A stretch of 64,000 nucleotides of DNA from Candidatus Azambacteria bacterium (GTDB taxonomy: Bacteria > Patescibacteriota > Minisyncoccia > GWC2-36-17 > WO2-46-25). The position numbers and the translations under genes are program-made. Below, piece by piece: positions 4,012 through 30,646 of this stretch (positions are counted from its first letter, which is position 1; each line of letters begins with the position of its first letter). The stretch is taken from NCBI GenBank assembly GCA_016234725.1, contig JACRAK010000012.1, positions 10,619-74,618 of the forward strand, written 5' to 3'. Below the pieces are notes generated by a model. That model searched no databases. It was given only the letters and a program-made list of their open reading frames with translations, and was not told the DNA's origin.

Positions 4012-5379
4012 ATGGAACACACCGAGCTCTGGCAACACGTGCTTTCCGAGGTTGAGCTGAGCGTATCGAAGGCAAGCTTCAATACCTGGTTTCAGCACAC
4101 CGGGATCCAGTCCAAACAGGATGGCGTTGTTTTTATTTCCGTTCCTAACTCTTTCGCGAAAGAGTGGCTGGAGAATAAATTCAACAAGTTCATCCTGAAG
4201 TCGCTTCGCACCATTTCTTCCGAAGTAAAAGACGTTAAATTCGTGATTGCCGCGTCGCCATCGCCGCTCACCCCGCAAAAAACGAAAAAGAAAAAAGAAG
4301 AGGAGGAAAAAGAGATCGCTCTCGACAATCAGTTTGAGTTTGCCGGCGTAGACGCCGAAACCAACTTAAACAGCAAGTACACATTCGATGAATTCGTCGT
4401 CGGCTCGTCAAACGAGCTCGCGCACGCGGCCGCCATCTCCGTTACCAAAAACCTCGGCACGATATACAACCCTTTGTTCGTGTACGGAGGAGTGGGGGCG
4501 GGGAAAACGCACCTCATTCAGGCGATCGGCAACGAAGTGCTGAAAATGCATAAGGGGAAGAAGGTAAAATATGTCTCTTCCGAGAAGTTCACGAACGAAC
4601 TCGTGAACGCGATCCAAAACAGGAGTATGGAGCGATTCAAAGAGGACTATAGGCAAAACGATGTCCTTATCATCGACGACGTCCAATTCCTTGCCGGCAA
4701 AGACAAAACGCAGGAAGAATTTTTTCACACATTCAATGCGCTGTACGAGAAGAACAAACAAATCATCATAAGCTCTGACCGCCCGCCGAAAGCGATCCCT
4801 ACGCTCGAAGACCGCCTGCAATCGCGCTTTGAAGGAGGGATGATCGCAGACATCGGCTATCCGGACTACGAAACGCGCCTCGCTATATTAAAAAACAAGA
4901 TTATTAAAAAACAGGTTGTGCTTTCCGACGACATTGTTGAATTTATCGCAAATAATTTTCAAAAGAACCTCCGCGAACTTGAAGGAGCGCTCAATAAGGT
5001 GCTTGTCCACATGAAAATAGCAAAAAACCCGCTTTCAGTGGAAGAAGTGAAAAAGATATTGTATCCGTCTATCCATACGCCAAAAAAGAACATCAATGTA
5101 AAACAAATAATCCAGGCGGTCGCGAATTTTTACGGCGTACAAGAAAAACAGCTTATTATCAAAACAAGAAAGCAGGAGATCGTGAAGCCGCGTCAGATCA
5201 TTATGTATTTGCTGCGAGAGGAATTTAAGTTTTCCTACCCTTCTATCGGCAGCAAGATAGGGGGCCGCGACCACACCACTGTTATGCACGCGTGCGAGAA
5301 AATAGAAGGACAATTAAAAGAAGACGAGTCGCTTATAGAAGAGCTTAATCTTATTAAAAAAATTGTGTATAACGCATAG
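4012..5379 (+). CDS. dnaA: Chromosomal replication initiator DnaA
   Basis: Start chosen at MEHTELWQHVLSE (canonical DnaA N-term); Walker A GGVGAGKTHL; C-terminal DNA-binding domain. Confidence 0.9.
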   Translation: MEHTELWQHVLSEVELSVSKASFNTWFQHTGIQSKQDGVVFISVPNSFAKEWLENKFNKFILKSLRTISSEVKDVKFVIAASPSPLTPQKTKKKKEEEEKEIALDNQFEFAGVDAETNLNSKYTFDEFVVGSSNELAHAAAISVTKNLGTIYNPLFVYGGVGAGKTHLIQAIGNEVLKMHKGKKVKYVSSEKFTNELVNAIQNRSMERFKEDYRQNDVLIIDDVQFLAGKDKTQEEFFHTFNALYEKNKQIIISSDRPPKAIPTLEDRLQSRFEGGMIADIGYPDYETRLAILKNKIIKKQVVLSDDIVEFIANNFQKNLRELEGALNKVLVHMKIAKNPLSVEEVKKILYPSIHTPKKNINVKQIIQAVANFYGVQEKQLIIKTRKQEIVKPRQIIMYLLREEFKFSYPSIGSKIGGRDHTTVMHACEKIEGQLKEDESLIEELNLIKKIVYNA

Positions 5380-22080: not shown

Positions 22081-22821
22081 CTAATGAGCCGGGGTTTTTA
22101 TTAATTCAATTACCTTATCAAGAAAGAGGGTAAAATTTTGCTTTGTTTTCTTATGCTTCTTGTATAATTGCAAGACTTTTTGTCTTATTTCTTTGTGACC
22201 ATAATAGCCGCGGTCAGGAAGATAAAGAAATTCGGAAAGATCCTCGTTTAGCAAAACTGTTAAAATTTCTTTTAGGTCCCCGACCTGTTTCTCGCCCAAT
22301 CCTTTTTCATTACAATAACCGCTATATCTTTTTAAAAATTCTATATGCATGATCTCGTGCGATGCTGTATTGGGGAAATCGCTAAATTGATTAAACATGA
22401 AGCTGTTCTTTCCAAAAGGAATTCTTTTCCCGAAGGTAAAATAAGCGCGATATTCTTTTTCAAATTCTTTAAGAGGAATATCTAGCATTTTTGAAAGACC
22501 TAAAAGGCATTCCTTGCCTGCTTCACCCCATCTTTTTTCTGCTCTTGCTGATATGTCTTTTATAATATGCGTTGCTTTGGGTGTTTTTAAGAATTTATCA
22601 AGAACCTTTTCTATTTTAGGAAGAATTTTTTCTTCGGAATCTGTTTTTTCAGCGAGTAATTCAATTTCCTGAGGAATGCCGCCCAAATCCCATTTTTTAT
22701 GCCCGCCGGCATCATACGATATATTTTTGACACATGAATCAACCCAATTTTTTAATTCCCAATCCTTATTAAATTCAAGTGTGATTTTAGGGAATAAGTT
22801 CTTTTTTGAGGCATTTTTCAT
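22081..22821 (-). CDS. HExxH-motif putative metallopeptidase (paralog, module A)
   Basis: Start set at MKNASKK; TASHEIMHIEF … ILTVLLNEDL, homologous to 28265 protein (TAMHEIMHIFF … MTVLLNLWF). Confidence 0.45.
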   Translation of the reverse strand: MKNASKKNLFPKITLEFNKDWELKNWVDSCVKNISYDAGGHKKWDLGGIPQEIELLAEKTDSEEKILPKIEKVLDKFLKTPKATHIIKDISARAEKRWGEAGKECLLGLSKMLDIPLKEFEKEYRAYFTFGKRIPFGKNSFMFNQFSDFPNTASHEIMHIEFLKRYSGYCNEKGLGEKQVGDLKEILTVLLNEDLSEFLYLPDRGYYGHKEIRQKVLQLYKKHKKTKQNFTLFLDKVIELIKTPAH

Positions 22822-22854
22822 GCGTTTAAAATACCATAAAAAGAGAAAATGCGC

Positions 22855-22890
22855 TAGCCTATTTAGGCTAGCGCATTTTGAGGCCGGAGA
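22855..22890 (-). terminator. Intrinsic terminator after peptide A (gcgctagccta-aat-aggctagcgc + U-rich)
   Basis: Perfect 10-bp stem immediately after peptide stop. Confidence 0.55.
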
Positions 22891-22894
22891 AGCG

Positions 22895-23026
22895 TTAATA
22901 ATCAGTGCAGCAGTCTCCGTCAGGACAGTCGCAGTCACTACACTGACTCGTGCAATCGAGCAAGGTCTTGCTGGCGACTTCTGATTCAGCAAGAACCAAA
23001 ACTCGATTTTTATCTGTTGTTCCCAT
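22895..23026 (-). CDS. Cys-rich RiPP precursor candidate A (43 aa, six Cys; SCIFF/ranthipeptide-like)
   Basis: Manual ORF MGTTDKNRVLVLAESEVASKTLLDCTSQCSDCDCPDGDCCTDY*; perfect SD aaggaggtgatc; ATG directly abuts the rSAM stop. Confidence 0.6.
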   Translation of the reverse strand: MGTTDKNRVLVLAESEVASKTLLDCTSQCSDCDCPDGDCCTDY

Positions 23027-24115
23027 TTAGATCACCTCCTTTGTTTTGACATGCCCCCAAATTAACTGTAAGGCTTTAAGTTCAATTAATCGTGGAATCA
23101 TGATCTTAAAGAGTTTGCAGTATGGGGAAGAAGTGGTGGCTAGGTCATGAGCTCCAAAATTGATGACGGGACATCCGCCCCCACAAACAAGAGACCACTG
23201 GCAATCTTGACAGCCCTTGTAATCAAGCACATCTTTTGAATGTAGTTCGGGAAAAGTGTCTTGAGACCACGCCATTTCCAAAAAGGTTTTCTTGGTTTCA
23301 AGATTGCCTATCGGCTTTTTATCCATCCTTGCCTGGCAAACAAATACATTGCCGTTATGATCAACGGCTACGCCGGAATGGCCAAGATTGCACCCTCGTA
23401 AATGAGGCTTCCTATCGAGATGAATCTCGCACAGCTGTTGCGCGGCAACGGCGCTATGATTACGAATTGCAAGAGCGTAATAATCATAGCAATCATTAAG
23501 GGCGCTCGAAGCTTTTTTCATAAAGTCTTCGTATCCCTTAAAATCTCCTACATTATCCCGATATAGACCATAACGAAACGGAATGCTTGCATCAATCAAA
23601 AAACGGCTCAGCATAGGCACGCCGGAAATATTTCTATCCGTTATGGTTGTTAGTATCGTCGGGCGGACATCATTCCCCATGCATAAGTTCAGATTTTTGG
23701 CCACGACATCAAAAGAACCGGTGCCAGCGCCGAAGAAGCGTGTTTTGTTGTGCCACTCACCTAAACCATCTAACGACATACAGACCCTCACCGAGTTATC
23801 TTTAATCATCTTTATTAGATTAAGATCGAGCAGAGTCCCGTTTGTCAGTAAGATTAATTTAGCGCGAATACCTTTTTCTACGAATCGTTTCTGAGTCTGT
23901 TCGATCAAAAAATTAATCAACGTTTTATGCAGCGTGGGCTCTCCTCCAGCAAGACGTATTGTTACTAGGTCCAGACCGTGATGGCTTACAGTTTGTTCAA
24001 GCTTATCCAGATATAAGCTTGCTGTCTGAAAAGACATGAACTTTTTGTCCTTATTTATATAACAGTAAGGACATTTTAAATTACAGCAGTTGGCTATATG
24101 GAGCCATGTGCTCAT
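23027..24115 (-). CDS. Radical SAM/SPASM-domain peptide maturase A
   Basis: CNLKCPYC (CxxxCxxC) and C-terminal SPASM CQDCQWSLVCGGGC; start at MSTWLH (upstream TTG extension possible). Confidence 0.7.
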   Translation of the reverse strand: MSTWLHIANCCNLKCPYCYINKDKKFMSFQTASLYLDKLEQTVSHHGLDLVTIRLAGGEPTLHKTLINFLIEQTQKRFVEKGIRAKLILLTNGTLLDLNLIKMIKDNSVRVCMSLDGLGEWHNKTRFFGAGTGSFDVVAKNLNLCMGNDVRPTILTTITDRNISGVPMLSRFLIDASIPFRYGLYRDNVGDFKGYEDFMKKASSALNDCYDYYALAIRNHSAVAAQQLCEIHLDRKPHLRGCNLGHSGVAVDHNGNVFVCQARMDKKPIGNLETKKTFLEMAWSQDTFPELHSKDVLDYKGCQDCQWSLVCGGGCPVINFGAHDLATTSSPYCKLFKIMIPRLIELKALQLIWGHVKTKEVI

Positions 24116-24185
24116 GCCCTTAACATTGTTTTTTTCTAGACTAGGTCTAAACAGCGGAGCATCTTTTGGTTGAATAAGTCCGTTT

Positions 24186-24491
24186 TCAAGCAGAAGTTTT
24201 ATCCGTGGCAAATCTTTCTCGGTCTGAAAAAGGGACAGATTGTCTATAAAGAAGCTTAGTTCTCATGTCGAGCAGGACCACGCCTCTTTTGCTTCCAGGG
24301 ACAAGCGCATAACCATAGCCGTCTACTTCTCCTGTGTAACAATTACCCGTCTTTTTATATGCCTCTATTTCCCTCATTTTCTTTCCTCCGTAGGTTTTAT
24401 GATGTTGTAAAAGATCTTTTCGTATTTGTCTTTCTAATAACATAACAATAGCGTTTTTGTCAAATTCTTCATAAGAAGGGTTACTAATCAA
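24186..24491 (-). CDS. Hypothetical 101-aa protein upstream of rSAM A (non-ATG start)
   Basis: ORF with TTG start and no SD; possibly an accessory/RRE-like protein or not expressed. Confidence 0.2.
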   Translation of the reverse strand: MISNPSYEEFDKNAIVMLLERQIRKDLLQHHKTYGGKKMREIEAYKKTGNCYTGEVDGYGYALVPGSKRGVVLLDMRTKLLYRQSVPFSDRERFATDKTSA

Positions 24492-24502
24492 TAAAAATGA
24501 AA

Positions 24503-24529
24503 AACTCCCTTTCTAAGGAGTTTTTCTTG
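24503..24529. terminator. Bidirectional terminator hairpin (aaaaactccc-tttctaa-gggagttttt)
   Basis: Perfect stem with flanking A/T runs; followed by repeat copy B. Confidence 0.5.
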
Positions 24530-26601: not shown

Positions 26602-27681
26602 TTAGGGTGCCTGTGGTATTGCCGATGCTTTTTGGAGAAAAAGCTTGATGTAGTCGAACATCCTTTTTCTTGTCTCGCAAAAAGGGTAGTCTCCGCCATA
26701 GTTTCCTGTCGCCCAGTAGGAGTCGGCTCTGCATCCGCCACGACAAATTGCTACATATTCGCAACGGCCGCATTTTTCAGCATTGTGATTGCTTCTTATT
26801 TCAGCGAGCGCCTTAGTTTTTGATCCCGCTAAAGCATTGATCAGTGATTGGCTGAGGATGTTACCAAGCATAAACCTCTCTTCCACCAATGAACCACAGG
26901 GAACGATGTTTCCTTCTTGATCAATGGTGATCATTTTCTTTAAGCAAGAGTTAGCAAAGGAGCACCCTCTCGGTCTCTGGCCAAGAAGCGAGCGCATCAT
27001 TGTGTCGAGCGGCTCGATTGAGGGAAAAGAGTTTTCCGTATGCGCCCAAAGATCGAATACGTCCTTATAGAAAGCAAACATTTCATCGTTTGAGGGCATT
27101 ATCGGTCTTTCTGAAAGTGGCACGCTTTTTAGAGGCAGCAAGCCAAATGAGTTCACGCCGAGAGCTTCATAGAAATGAAATATCTCTTTGGCGCGAGAAA
27201 CATTTAGTTTACTTATAACAGAAAGAACACCAAGAGGCATGCCAGTCGCTTTTATTTCTGCGCAAGTTCTTAATAGCGCACTTATATCAGAGCGGCGATG
27301 AGCTATGTATACATCTGTTGGCGCATCAAGACTAATCCCCACATGGAAATCATTCTTTTGAAGAAAATCAATCCACGAGGCATCCAGCAAGAGGCCGTTT
27401 GTTTGGATGTTGTTGTGATATACAATGCCTCTTTTTTCCGTTTCCTCCTTCTGGGCATTTATTACTTCTTGATAAAAATTTTTACCAACAAGAAGCGGTT
27501 CGCCGCCATGCCAGCAGAACTCGACACTGTCAAAGCCGATGGAGGCATTATGAATCATAACCCTGATGTTTTTTATCTCGAACTTTTTTATGTTTCTTCG
27601 AGAGGCGCGTGAGTAACAATACACGCACTGAATGTTGCAGTCAGATCCCGTGATCATGATGATCGTCATGGCTTTCTTCAT
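26602..27681 (-). CDS. Radical SAM/SPASM-domain peptide maturase B
   Basis: CNIQCVYC and SPASM CGRCEYVAICRGGC. Confidence 0.7.
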   Translation of the reverse strand: MKKAMTIIMITGSDCNIQCVYCYSRASRRNIKKFEIKNIRVMIHNASIGFDSVEFCWHGGEPLLVGKNFYQEVINAQKEETEKRGIVYHNNIQTNGLLLDASWIDFLQKNDFHVGISLDAPTDVYIAHRRSDISALLRTCAEIKATGMPLGVLSVISKLNVSRAKEIFHFYEALGVNSFGLLPLKSVPLSERPIMPSNDEMFAFYKDVFDLWAHTENSFPSIEPLDTMMRSLLGQRPRGCSFANSCLKKMITIDQEGNIVPCGSLVEERFMLGNILSQSLINALAGSKTKALAEIRSNHNAEKCGRCEYVAICRGGCRADSYWATGNYGGDYPFCETRKRMFDYIKLFLQKASAIPQAP

Positions 27682-27756: not shown

Positions 27757-27939
27757 TTACTTGGTGCTGGCGTCGCGATAATGATCGTGCGACGGTTGAT
27801 CGACCCAGTGATCGTGTTTCATGCTCAGCGAGTCACCGTTTTTAATCTTGGCAGTCGCTTGAGTAATGATCTTTTGCACGGGTCCGGATATGCAGACGCC
27901 TGACATATCCTTAACATGACTATCGATTCCGCGTTCCAT
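27757..27939 (-). CDS. 60-aa candidate precursor peptide B (His/aromatic-rich C-terminus)
   Basis: SD aaggagggtaaat-ATG; MERGIDSHVKDMSGVCISGPVQKIITQATAKIKNGDSLSMKHDHWVDQPSHDHYRDASTK; hairpin GGAGGGGG…CCCCCTCC between it and rSAM B. Confidence 0.45.
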   Translation of the reverse strand: MERGIDSHVKDMSGVCISGPVQKIITQATAKIKNGDSLSMKHDHWVDQPSHDHYRDASTK

Positions 27940-28264: not shown

Positions 28265-28978
28265 ATGAGCACCCCGCGTGTTATATTTTCTTACAATCAG
28301 GAAAAAGATATCAAAAACATTCAAATTGGACTTGATACTGTGAGTCGCGGCAGACAACCAGATAGAGAGCTTGTACAAATTATCCAGCAATACGGCAGCG
28401 CGCCATCAGAAGAAGACATCAAGGAATATTTAATTTCTCGATGGAAGAATAAAAGGGGTGTCCCTGACCTTATCGTAAAACAACTCCAAGAATATTGGGA
28501 CACAATAGAAGAAAAATATTTTAATCATCTTGCAGATCGAATGCAGCTCACGTCCTTTCATGGAATTAAACAGCTAGGCGGTTTTTTAAGTGTGCGTTAC
28601 GGAAGCGGTTATAATACTGAACAACAATGGTTTGCGGTAAGTGTGTATAATAGCACCCTAAAGAACACATTAACGGCAATGCATGAGATCATGCATATTT
28701 TTTTTCATAAACAATGGTGGGATTTTTGCAAAAAACAAGGATTGCCCGATAACAATATATGGGATGTAAAAGAATCAATGACGGTGCTTTTAAATTTGTG
28801 GTTTAAAAATCAGGTTATTGATACTGATTGGGGATATGATGAGCACGCCGAGCTTCGCCGTTTCATTATAGATTGGTTTTTGGAAACGAGAGATTTTAAA
28901 AAAACATTGGAAAGGGCGTGTATATATATGAAAGAACACTCAGAAAAAAGCCCTGATTGGATAACCAATCAGGGCTAG
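28265..28978 (+). CDS. HExxH-motif putative metallopeptidase (paralog, module C)
   Basis: 237 aa; TAMHEIMHIFFHK … ESMTVLLNLWF. Confidence 0.45.
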   Translation: MSTPRVIFSYNQEKDIKNIQIGLDTVSRGRQPDRELVQIIQQYGSAPSEEDIKEYLISRWKNKRGVPDLIVKQLQEYWDTIEEKYFNHLADRMQLTSFHGIKQLGGFLSVRYGSGYNTEQQWFAVSVYNSTLKNTLTAMHEIMHIFFHKQWWDFCKKQGLPDNNIWDVKESMTVLLNLWFKNQVIDTDWGYDEHAELRRFIIDWFLETRDFKKTLERACIYMKEHSEKSPDWITNQG

Positions 28979-29002: not shown

Positions 29003-29155
29003 TTAGGAGCCATCGCAGCCGTCTGTGCCGCCGTGACATCCTGACTGGCATACGTTGCAGCCGCTGTTGTCACAGGTGCCACCGCTGTTGTCGCATGCGG
29101 CTAGTACGGTAGTAGCCGACGATCCTTCAATGAGCGAAGAAAAAGCGAGCTTCAT
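29003..29155 (-). CDS. Cys-rich RiPP precursor candidate C (50 aa, seven Cys)
   Basis: Manual ORF MKLAFSSLIEGSSATTVLAACDNSGGTCDNSGCNVCQSGCHGGTDGCDGS*; perfect SD aaggaggtgattg; downstream of rSAM C on same strand. Confidence 0.6.
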   Translation of the reverse strand: MKLAFSSLIEGSSATTVLAACDNSGGTCDNSGCNVCQSGCHGGTDGCDGS

Positions 29156-29226
29156 AACAATCACCTCCTTATTGGGAGTTTCTGTGTTTTGCTGACTCCT
29201 TCCCAGTGAGTAGCAAGTGGGGGTGT

Positions 29227-30534
29227 TTACACCACCAGCTCCAAAACATTTCTGCTGATAAGCTCGCTAAGAAAATGCAGATATTTTGCATTTTCCATAG
29301 AGATTTTATACATAGCGCGAAGAGATTTTGGAGTGAACGACAGTTTTTTGATGTGAATGTCTTCTATGAGATTCAGTGTCTCGTGCTCCACGAAGGTGTT
29401 TTTAATGCCACTCGTGTTGATTATCCCTAATGGTTCATCTCGGCGAAAGCGACAAGCTCTTCTTACGCGGAGCACCGTGTTGTTCTTAAGAAGCGCATGT
29501 GTTTTTGGAACCGCGCGTTTTTGAGCCATTTGTGCTCTCATGATCGAGTCTTCACCGTGAACATCGCCATTAAGGGAGGCGACTCGGCAGCCACCACCAC
29601 ACATAGCGACAAGCTTACAGGAAAGACAGGCCCGAGGAAGAAGAGATCCGTCACGCCACTGAACCATTTTTAACCAAATGGATTTCAAATCTTCAGTGGA
29701 AAGAGATCCATAAGCGATTTCGTGGTGGGGGCATGCGCGCACCGATCCATCTGAAGCAATGGCGATGGACGTTTTACCAGCAGAACAGGTTCGCTGACCA
29801 AGGAGGGAATAAGCATCGTCGTTGTCGAAAAAACAGATGGGGTAGGGAACGAGAGAGTCTAATTGCATGCCAGTGGTTTTCAGATCAAGTAGCTGGTCAA
29901 CAATTAAACCGACGCTTTTTATTGGAAGAGCGAGTTCCTTTGAAGACTGTTTGTTTGGTAAGCGCGGAGATGTAACGCGTGTCGCAGAAAATGCTACCAC
30001 CCCAAGCTTATGTGCAAACTCGCCAGTTTTTTTCACATCTAGCAGGTTTTGCTCCATTACAACCATATTTACAGCGGTGCGGATGCCGGCGGCATGAGCA
30101 CACTCAATACCCCGCACGATACGCTGAAAAGATCCTTTTGTGCCGGAAAGAGAATCGTGGGTATTGGAATCATACGATAAGAGCGATGTTAATATTGTTC
30201 GGAGTCCCACCGAAAAAAGCTCCTTTGCAATTTTTTCAGTAAGTAGAACAAGGTTTGAATTTAGGCTGAACGAGATTTTCCTCTTCGAAAGTTCCTTAAT
30301 GAGAAAAATAAGTTCGCCCTTATTTAGAAGTGGTTCTCCTCCTGTAAGTATGACGTGGAAAATCTTGTGGGCAGCAAGTTGCTCAGCAATTCGAATCGAC
30401 AACGCCTCCGAAATGCTTTTATTTGGAACTAATCCATCGTCTCGCCAAAAATTGTAGCAGTGGAAACATTTTTGGTTGCAGCCAGTATTGATTTCAACAT
30501 GAGCAGCTAGTGGAGCATCAAGCGTTTTATACAT
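29227..30534 (-). CDS. Radical SAM/SPASM-domain peptide maturase C with C-terminal PqqD-like (RRE-like) extension
   Basis: CNQKCFHC; SPASM CLSCKLVAMCGGGC; C-terminal about 110 aa …KKLSFTPKSLRAMYKISMENAKYLHFLSELISRNVLEL resembling PqqD/RRE; SD aaaaggaggctgtt. Confidence 0.7.
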   Translation of the reverse strand: MYKTLDAPLAAHVEINTGCNQKCFHCYNFWRDDGLVPNKSISEALSIRIAEQLAAHKIFHVILTGGEPLLNKGELIFLIKELSKRKISFSLNSNLVLLTEKIAKELFSVGLRTILTSLLSYDSNTHDSLSGTKGSFQRIVRGIECAHAAGIRTAVNMVVMEQNLLDVKKTGEFAHKLGVVAFSATRVTSPRLPNKQSSKELALPIKSVGLIVDQLLDLKTTGMQLDSLVPYPICFFDNDDAYSLLGQRTCSAGKTSIAIASDGSVRACPHHEIAYGSLSTEDLKSIWLKMVQWRDGSLLPRACLSCKLVAMCGGGCRVASLNGDVHGEDSIMRAQMAQKRAVPKTHALLKNNTVLRVRRACRFRRDEPLGIINTSGIKNTFVEHETLNLIEDIHIKKLSFTPKSLRAMYKISMENAKYLHFLSELISRNVLELVV

Positions 30535-30646
30535 AACAGCCTCCTTTTGTTTTTAAAGCTCTTCCTCGACATATCAATAATGCACGAGGTTTATTAATAA
30601 AAACATTAATACATTTATATTAATTTGTCAATACATTATGGAGCGG

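Follow-up and report, generated by a model that had tools for sequence, protein, structure and literature searches.

In a 64,000-nucleotide stretch of DNA from an ultra-small bacterium of the candidate phyla radiation (CPR, Patescibacteria), Candidatus Azambacteria (assembly GCA_016234725.1, contig JACRAK010000012.1, positions 10,619 to 74,618; hereafter the window), a gene for a radical S-adenosylmethionine (SAM)/SPASM maturase is followed by a gene for a 50-residue peptide and by a convergent gene for a HExxH protein, and the three probably make up a cassette of the RiPP (ribosomally made and post-translationally modified peptide) type, in which the C-terminal RiPP recognition element (RRE) of the maturase would dock the leader of the peptide, the SPASM enzyme would cross-link its core and the HExxH protein would trim the leader. 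Judged by its sequences, the system resembles an RRE-dependent radical SAM/SPASM RiPP pathway, with familiar parts in an unusual order. Its elements, in window coordinates, are the following.

29227–30534, minus strand: radical SAM/SPASM maturase gene (435 aa; open reading frame (ORF) with Pfam Radical_SAM, Fer4_12 and SPASM matches)
30457–30480, minus strand: CX3CX2C cluster motif (C19, C23, C26), its cysteines 100% conserved in 117 homologs
29587–29835, minus strand: SPASM auxiliary-cluster region (C234, C250, C268, C303, C306, C312, C316)
29479–29586, minus strand: variable linker, residues 317–352, of low conservation except R317 and D329
29230–29478, minus strand: C-terminal RRE, residues 353–435, a PqqD/MftB-like winged helix in the predicted structure
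29003–29155, minus strand: gene for the precursor peptide, 50 aa and a stop codon, with a ribosome-binding site, a terminator and orthologs in the same position
29096–29155, minus strand: putative leader, residues 1–20, MKLAFSSLIEGSSATTVLAA, with the family motif LAFSSLI; leader/core boundary putative
29006–29095, minus strand: putative core, residues 21–50, CDNSGGTCDNSGCNVCQSGCHGGTDGCDGS, with six cysteines, three of which precede an Asp
28976–28949, minus strand: intrinsic terminator hairpin after the precursor gene (12-bp stem with 7 GC pairs, then a T-run)
28265–28978, plus strand: companion HExxH protein (237 aa, predicted zincin/gluzincin-like fold), convergent to the precursor gene; candidate leader peptidase

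The C-terminal part of the maturase carries the argument. The enzyme continues for 119 residues after its last SPASM cysteine, C316, close to the 'about 110' of the original prediction, and the tail quoted there, ...KKLSFTPKSLRAMYKISMENAKYLHFLSELISRNVLEL, is present. That prediction held the extension to be RRE-like and staked the claim on an RRE-like fold being found. An alignment of 58 C-terminal domains of the family (A1) was used as input to AlphaFold2 and to profile searches; the AlphaFold2 model has an RRE fold with a predicted local distance difference test score (pLDDT) of 92.3 and a predicted template modelling score of 0.82. Four strands (residues 355–357, 362–365, 370–373 and 379–382; 17–19, 24–27, 32–35 and 41–44 in model numbering) are followed by three helices (384–395, 402–409 and 415–427; 46–57, 64–71 and 77–89 in the model), and the only part of the linker that was modelled, residues 339–348 (model residues 1–10), has a low pLDDT of about 60. 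The consensus of A1 reads L..R.R.E.FGG....G....FV......LL..L.....FT...L......FL..L....V. As predicted, the domain conforms to the strict structural definition of an RRE (PMC12710340). We regard this structural result as decisive: in the model, the last ~85 residues of the enzyme form an RRE fold. Among the 58 family domains, the NCBIfam MftB model is matched by 10 (best E 1.4e-5) and PqqD_rel_X by one; MftB is the PqqD-family chaperone of the mycofactocin pathway.

The position of the domain is the same throughout the family. Run against 1.84 billion representative proteins, the A1 profile gave 289 matches in all, and among the 150 best matches listed every long one has the domain at about residues 340–435 of a protein of ~435 residues; the short matches were considered as stand-alone RRE proteins and rejected, being mostly gene fragments that start in the SPASM tail. 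Of the 66 related loci whose CX2CX5CX3C motif could be placed, 65 have 107–150 residues after it (median 121.5), and because the CX3CX2C motif is preceded by a median of 20 residues (commonest value 18), there is no room for an N-terminal domain. On this sequence evidence, i.e., the placement at about 340–435 in the long matches and the length that follows the SPASM motif, the C-terminal RRE is a fixed, family-defining architecture. The statement in the original prediction that RREs are normally N-terminal agrees both with a review, according to which the RRE of radical SAM RiPP enzymes is generally N-terminal and C-terminal RREs are on record for the proteusin radical SAM epimerases only (PMC8326336), and with NCBIfam alignments: the match to the window core begins at profile position 85–110 in the StsB, AlbA and geopeptide maturase profiles, so that the extra domain of those maturases is N-terminal. 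Enzyme residues 54–318 align with TigE residues 169–429, and the TigE core begins at about residue 115.

By sequence, the catalytic part is that of a radical SAM/SPASM enzyme, as had been proposed. Pfam Radical_SAM (PF04055) matches residues 14–173 (E 2.5e-23, 83.5 bits against a cut-off of 29.5) and SPASM residues 250–306 (E 6e-6, 26.8 bits against a cut-off of 21.5), and Fer4_12 is matched as well; the PF04055 score and the invariant C19, C23 and C26 place the enzyme in the radical SAM superfamily. The gene has an AAGGAGG ribosome-binding site at 30546–30540, and an identical database protein (P0001) carries the name 'radical SAM protein [Candidatus Azambacteria bacterium]'. The hallmark of the SPASM subgroup is a seven-cysteine pattern, CX9-15GX4C...CX2CX5CX3C...C, which binds two auxiliary clusters. 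The corresponding spacing is invariant in the enzyme family (C250-x12-G-x4-C268 and C303x2C306x5C312x3C316, plus C234), and all seven cysteines are 100% conserved in the alignment of 117 homologs. The usual final SPASM cysteine is not conserved, C361 being found in 24% of sequences; D329 (codon 29548–29550) is invariant and may, speculatively, be a non-cysteine ligand of auxiliary cluster II, or else the site may be open. A precedent is PqqE, in which an Asp serves as cluster ligand (PMC8326336). A search for a ligand equivalent to D329, comparing the SPASM segment with PDB sequences, gave only weak alignments with TigE and SuiB, both of which end before residue 329.

Alignments with curated families place the catalytic core at residues 5–328, with no N-terminal domain ahead of it. 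The best curated NCBIfam match is GeoRSP radical SAM/SPASM (TIGR04303; 105.8 bits against a cut-off of 400, residues 5–328). The models for MftC (TIGR03962; 72.9 bits, cut-off 265, residues 3–319), PqqE (62.5 bits, cut-off 381, residues 4–334) and PapB (NF047865, 330 positions; 60.3 bits, cut-off 340) are also matched, and the other best curated matches, NirJ2, AhbD, ACGX and ScmE, are likewise far under their cut-offs. Because all of the best scores are far under cut-off, the enzyme falls in no curated family by sequence.

The peptide encoded at 29003–29155, MKLAFSSLIEGSSATTVLAACDNSGGTCDNSGCNVCQSGCHGGTDGCDGS, is exactly that given in the original prediction, which described a seven-cysteine precursor with a repeated CDNSG motif; the motif occurs twice (residues 21–25 and 28–32), and the cysteines number six. 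The gene begins 71 nt downstream of the enzyme gene, and its strong ribosome-binding site, AAGGAGGTG, lies at 29170–29162, 6 nt 5' of the ATG. A mechanically produced ORF list also offers a GTG start at 29164, and the ATG is the start with a ribosome-binding site. The HExxH gene, which converges on the precursor gene, overlaps the terminator hairpin with its 3' end. Differences between the window peptide gene and its ortholog in L003 number 10, 8 and 33 at codon positions 1, 2 and 3, and two further ortholog comparisons gave 15/7/31 and 18/9/26. Since these differences concentrate at codon position 3, the sequences indicate purifying selection on the peptide gene at the protein level, and this bias, together with the ribosome-binding site and the terminator, identifies the 50-residue ORF as a real gene rather than a chance ORF. 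Only four relatives of the peptide are present among 5.8 billion predicted proteins; neither the window precursor nor the exact HExxH protein is in that collection, which does hold the window enzyme. With only four precursor relatives called anywhere, small precursor genes of this kind are systematically missed by gene callers.

Pairing of enzyme and peptide extends well beyond the window. A scan of 185,579 species genomes gave 230 enzyme relatives; 80 loci were fetched, 77 of them usable for counting pairs. Forty-five of the 80 are labelled as CPR members and two as DPANN or other archaea, and the rest comprise Omnitrophota, a few metagenome-assembled genomes (MAGs) labelled Proteobacteria and unclassified genomes. 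A same-strand small ORF that starts right after the enzyme gene and has at least four cysteines in its last 40 residues is present in 50 of the 77 loci, compared with 3.0% of 3,464 other small ORFs. The peptide lies upstream of the enzyme gene in two loci (L004, L012) and a few hundred bases downstream in four (L019, L029, L031, L039). Orthologs of the window peptide come immediately after the enzyme gene in the following five loci.

L001, Nomurabacteria (the same contig is also deposited as Colwellbacteria, L006): peptide MRLAFAPLIIRADPMILAACDNASGGCDAGGGCDSCQSGCEGGADGCDGSFG
L003, Jorgensenbacteria
L005, Wolfebacteria
L007, MAG labelled Omnitrophica
L009, unclassified bacterium

That enzyme and peptide stay paired across phyla makes the latter a credible candidate substrate of the former. 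The cores of the family contain 25.6% Cys and 19.8% Asp, with an Asp directly after 130 of the cysteines, and are hypervariable between lineages. An N-terminal motif, by comparison, recurs in 27 of 51 distinct precursors and in 1.6% of background small ORFs; it takes the form LAFSSLI in the window peptide and G-F/Y-x-S/T-L-L in relatives (GFETIL, GYVSLL, GIVSLL, L-x-F-x-S-L-L), and in sequence terms it looks like a leader recognition sequence for the RRE. Its co-occurrence with the C-terminal domain lends indirect support to leader binding. An NCBIfam scan of ten diverse precursors assigned none to a family, with a sub-threshold FibroRumin match for one CYCHCACAC-type peptide.

Several related loci differ from the window in composition or gene order. 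In two Nanoarchaeota or archaeon MAGs (L018, L020), the same enzyme architecture is found with CDC-rich peptides directly downstream whose leaders lack GFxSLL, a pattern that suggests transfer between CPR and DPANN genomes or a divergent recognition sequence. In Levybacteria-type loci (L019, L031, L039; about 5050–5360), the enzyme gene is followed by a gene for a Peptidase_MA-like HExxH protein and then by a longer precursor, the core of which is Pro/Cys-rich (PPPPC repeats) and not Asp/Cys-rich. The gene immediately upstream of the Nomurabacteria ortholog (L001, 2452–3771, plus strand) encodes a 439-residue protein that is rich in Cys, Gly and Ser, has a hydrophobic segment near its N-terminus and is not conserved in the window.

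The HExxH protein is matched by no Pfam or NCBIfam model. H140-E141-x-x-H144 and E170 are invariant in its family, its best structural matches are M1 peptidases, and its closest relative among the 5.8 billion predicted proteins is 88% identical. Gluzincin metallopeptidases are defined by HExxH and a Glu ligand further downstream within a zincin fold. Homologs flank the enzyme gene in nine loci, and a second, Peptidase_MA-like HExxH family does so in 19. We favour a role as leader peptidase. Alternatively, by analogy with an Asp-hydroxylating HEXXH oxygenase described recently (PMC12636437), it may hydroxylate Asp. In ChlB-type systems an HExxH domain is fused to the radical SAM enzyme and acts as an alpha-ketoglutarate/Fe hydroxylase, whereas the HExxH protein of the window is separate and has the invariant gluzincin-like HExxH...E; having no NCBIfam match, it has none to a HEXXH-hydroxylase model either, if the library contains one.

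In the mechanism that we propose for the cassette, the RRE would bind the leader motif LAFSSLI, probably as an extra β-strand between β3 and α3, and docking of the leader would hold the Cys/Asp-rich core in the active site. There, 5'-deoxyadenosyl radical chemistry, together with the auxiliary Fe-S clusters, would cross-link the core, most likely through Cys-to-carbon thioethers of the sacti- or ranthipeptide type and possibly onto the Asp or Asn residues that come after the cysteines, after which the convergent zincin-fold HExxH protein would cut off the leader. Thioethers are judged the most likely chemistry on two grounds: Cys dominates the cores, as it does those of SCIFF peptides, sactipeptides and ranthipeptides, and the pairing of Cys with Asp recalls, by analogy, the Cys-to-Asp links of the PapB type. 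PapB joins the Cys sulfur to the Asp β-carbon.

Several observations weigh against this account. When the last 102 residues of the window enzyme were scanned by themselves with Pfam and NCBIfam models, no PqqD match came up, only a spurious response-regulator match (E 0.02), and a Pfam scan of the 58 family domains gave no PqqD (PF05402) match and scattered noise only. The A1 profile found only weak generic winged helices among PDB sequences, and the fold was therefore tested by structure. About a third of the related loci, mostly outside the CPR, have no adjacent Cys-rich ORF as defined above. Moreover, homology is no guide to the chemistry, the matches to GeoRSP, NirJ2, AhbD, ACGX, MftC, PqqE and PapB all being far sub-cut-off, and several of the nearest curated relatives are not thioether formers, some of them forming C-C bonds or tailoring haem.

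An alternative that we consider unlikely is that the product is a redox or metal-binding cofactor derived from a peptide, as mycofactocin and pyrroloquinoline quinone (PQQ) are, and not a secreted peptide with cross-links, the enzyme being a fusion of an MftC/PqqE-like maturase and its MftB/PqqD-like chaperone that forms C-C bonds, decarboxylates or performs other chemistry. The alignments with MftC, PqqE and GeoRSP are full-length and belong to the best curated ones, the relatives' C-terminal domains match MftB specifically, the immediate cassette lacks a transporter and an export peptidase, and Cys/Asp-rich cores would be good metal binders. Against this, the MftC and PqqE scores given above (72.9 bits for a cut-off of 265, 62.5 for 381) are far too low, the precursor ends in ...GCDGS, with neither the C-terminal Val-Tyr of mycofactocin precursors nor the Glu/Tyr pair of PqqA, and hypervariability of cores between lineages is typical of secondary-metabolite RiPPs and not of cofactors. 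A second alternative, quite improbable, gives the C-terminal domain the role of a generic winged helix in DNA binding, regulation or oligomerisation, with no part in peptide recognition, and leaves the substrate to be recognised by the catalytic core, as in RRE-less maturases. A lipobox has the pattern [LVI][ASTVI][GAS]C, and L-A-A-C or L-S-A-C stands at the first cysteine of the window peptide and of its orthologs in L001, L003, L005 and L007. Even so, it is very improbable that the product of the small ORF is a tiny lipoprotein or a secreted Cys-rich metal-binding protein that is a mere neighbour of the enzyme, since charged residues break up the would-be hydrophobic region in each of the five closest orthologs (E10 in the window peptide; R/D, E/R, E/E/H and E/K/D in the others), some orthologs have no basic N-region, more distant family precursors lack the lipobox yet keep GFxSLL and the position beside the enzyme, and the pairing is far above chance; a lipoprotein signal peptide was rejected on the composition of the leader.

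Compared with known systems, the leader-docking, cross-linking cassette that we prefer differs in the placement of the RRE and in its precursor. The maturases of SCIFF peptides, sactipeptides and ranthipeptides (CteB, Tte1186, AlbA, StsB, TigE) have an N-terminal RRE, whereas that of the window enzyme is C-terminal. The window precursor matches neither a SCIFF (ScfA/ScfB) nor any other curated NCBIfam precursor model, and rSAM_six_Cys is not among the best 25 NCBIfam matches of the window enzyme; membership of SCIFF was rejected on the missing precursor match and the C-terminal RRE. The MftC/MftB, PqqE/PqqD and GeoRSP systems have their PqqD-type chaperone as a protein of its own, whereas in the window enzyme it is fused to the C-terminus, and the Cys/Asp-rich window precursor lacks Val-Tyr (MftA-type) and Glu...Tyr (PqqA-type) targets; the system was excluded from the MftC, PqqE and GeoRSP families on score and precursor type. 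Like the window system, ranthipeptides of the PapB/freyrasin type combine a SPASM maturase with repeated Cys...Asp core motifs, but PapB has no extension and its motif is CX3D, whereas in the window family the Asp usually follows the Cys directly; a place in the PapB family (NF047865) was rejected at 60.3 bits against 340. The proteusin epimerases PoyD and OspD are, like the window enzyme, radical SAM RiPP enzymes with a C-terminal RRE (PMC8326336), but they have no SPASM domain or auxiliary clusters, epimerise substrates with long nitrile-hydratase-like leaders and are unrelated to the window enzyme in sequence. No Pfam or NCBIfam family describes this system, nor does any paper found in the literature searched, in which coverage of subscription papers is incomplete.

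Genome-mining tools, like the curated models, take it that a radical SAM RiPP maturase either has its RRE at the N-terminus or works with a separate PqqD gene, and the present family indicates that the docking module can lie before or after the catalytic core. That it escapes the Pfam PqqD model, and that its precursors are almost never called, suggests an annotation blind spot. On its own the permuted domain order is a modest surprise, and more interest comes from how broad and lineage-specific the family is; its precursors are uncharacterised, largely unannotated and characteristic of CPR and DPANN genomes. In these organisms genomes are tiny and few natural products are known, and a conserved, lineage-wide cassette with hypervariable Cys/Asp cores offers a candidate molecule for a symbiotic or competitive lifestyle. 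Going further, and only tentatively, one might see here the first recognised member of a new RiPP class specific to ultra-small CPR/DPANN symbionts, in which a maturase with a C-terminal MftB-like RRE in cis would turn Cys-Asp-rich cores into a product whose cross-link pattern, or metal or redox function, is new to sacti- and ranthipeptides and which might act in host-cell interaction. With two or three genes and a 50-residue substrate, the system should be easy to reconstitute.

The window contains two further radical SAM/SPASM genes. For the product of the second (26602–27681, minus strand), the closest matches are anaerobic sulfatase maturase and DynA, at sub-cut-off scores in both cases. 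Upstream of it, a 60-residue ORF (27757–27939, minus strand) has AGGAGG as its ribosome-binding site and a tail rich in His, Trp and Tyr, ...MKHDHWVDQPSHDHYRDASTK, and is a candidate precursor of a different, cyclophane-type module. The product of the third (23027–24211, minus strand) is closest to PapB (142 bits against the cut-off of 340), and the next gene (22081–22992, minus strand) encodes a paralog of the HExxH protein at 28265–28978, with 21% identity and HExxH conserved; since this paralog adjoins the third radical SAM gene, the HExxH family accompanies more than one type of maturase in the genome. A frameshifted N-terminal RRE was sought upstream in the module designated A, in the region 24080–24520, with no convincing result. 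All three radical SAM modules lie in the part of the window between 14000 and 38000, where the GC content is 0.34–0.46, compared with 0.50–0.55 in the flanks, and which may be an island or just a stretch of different composition.

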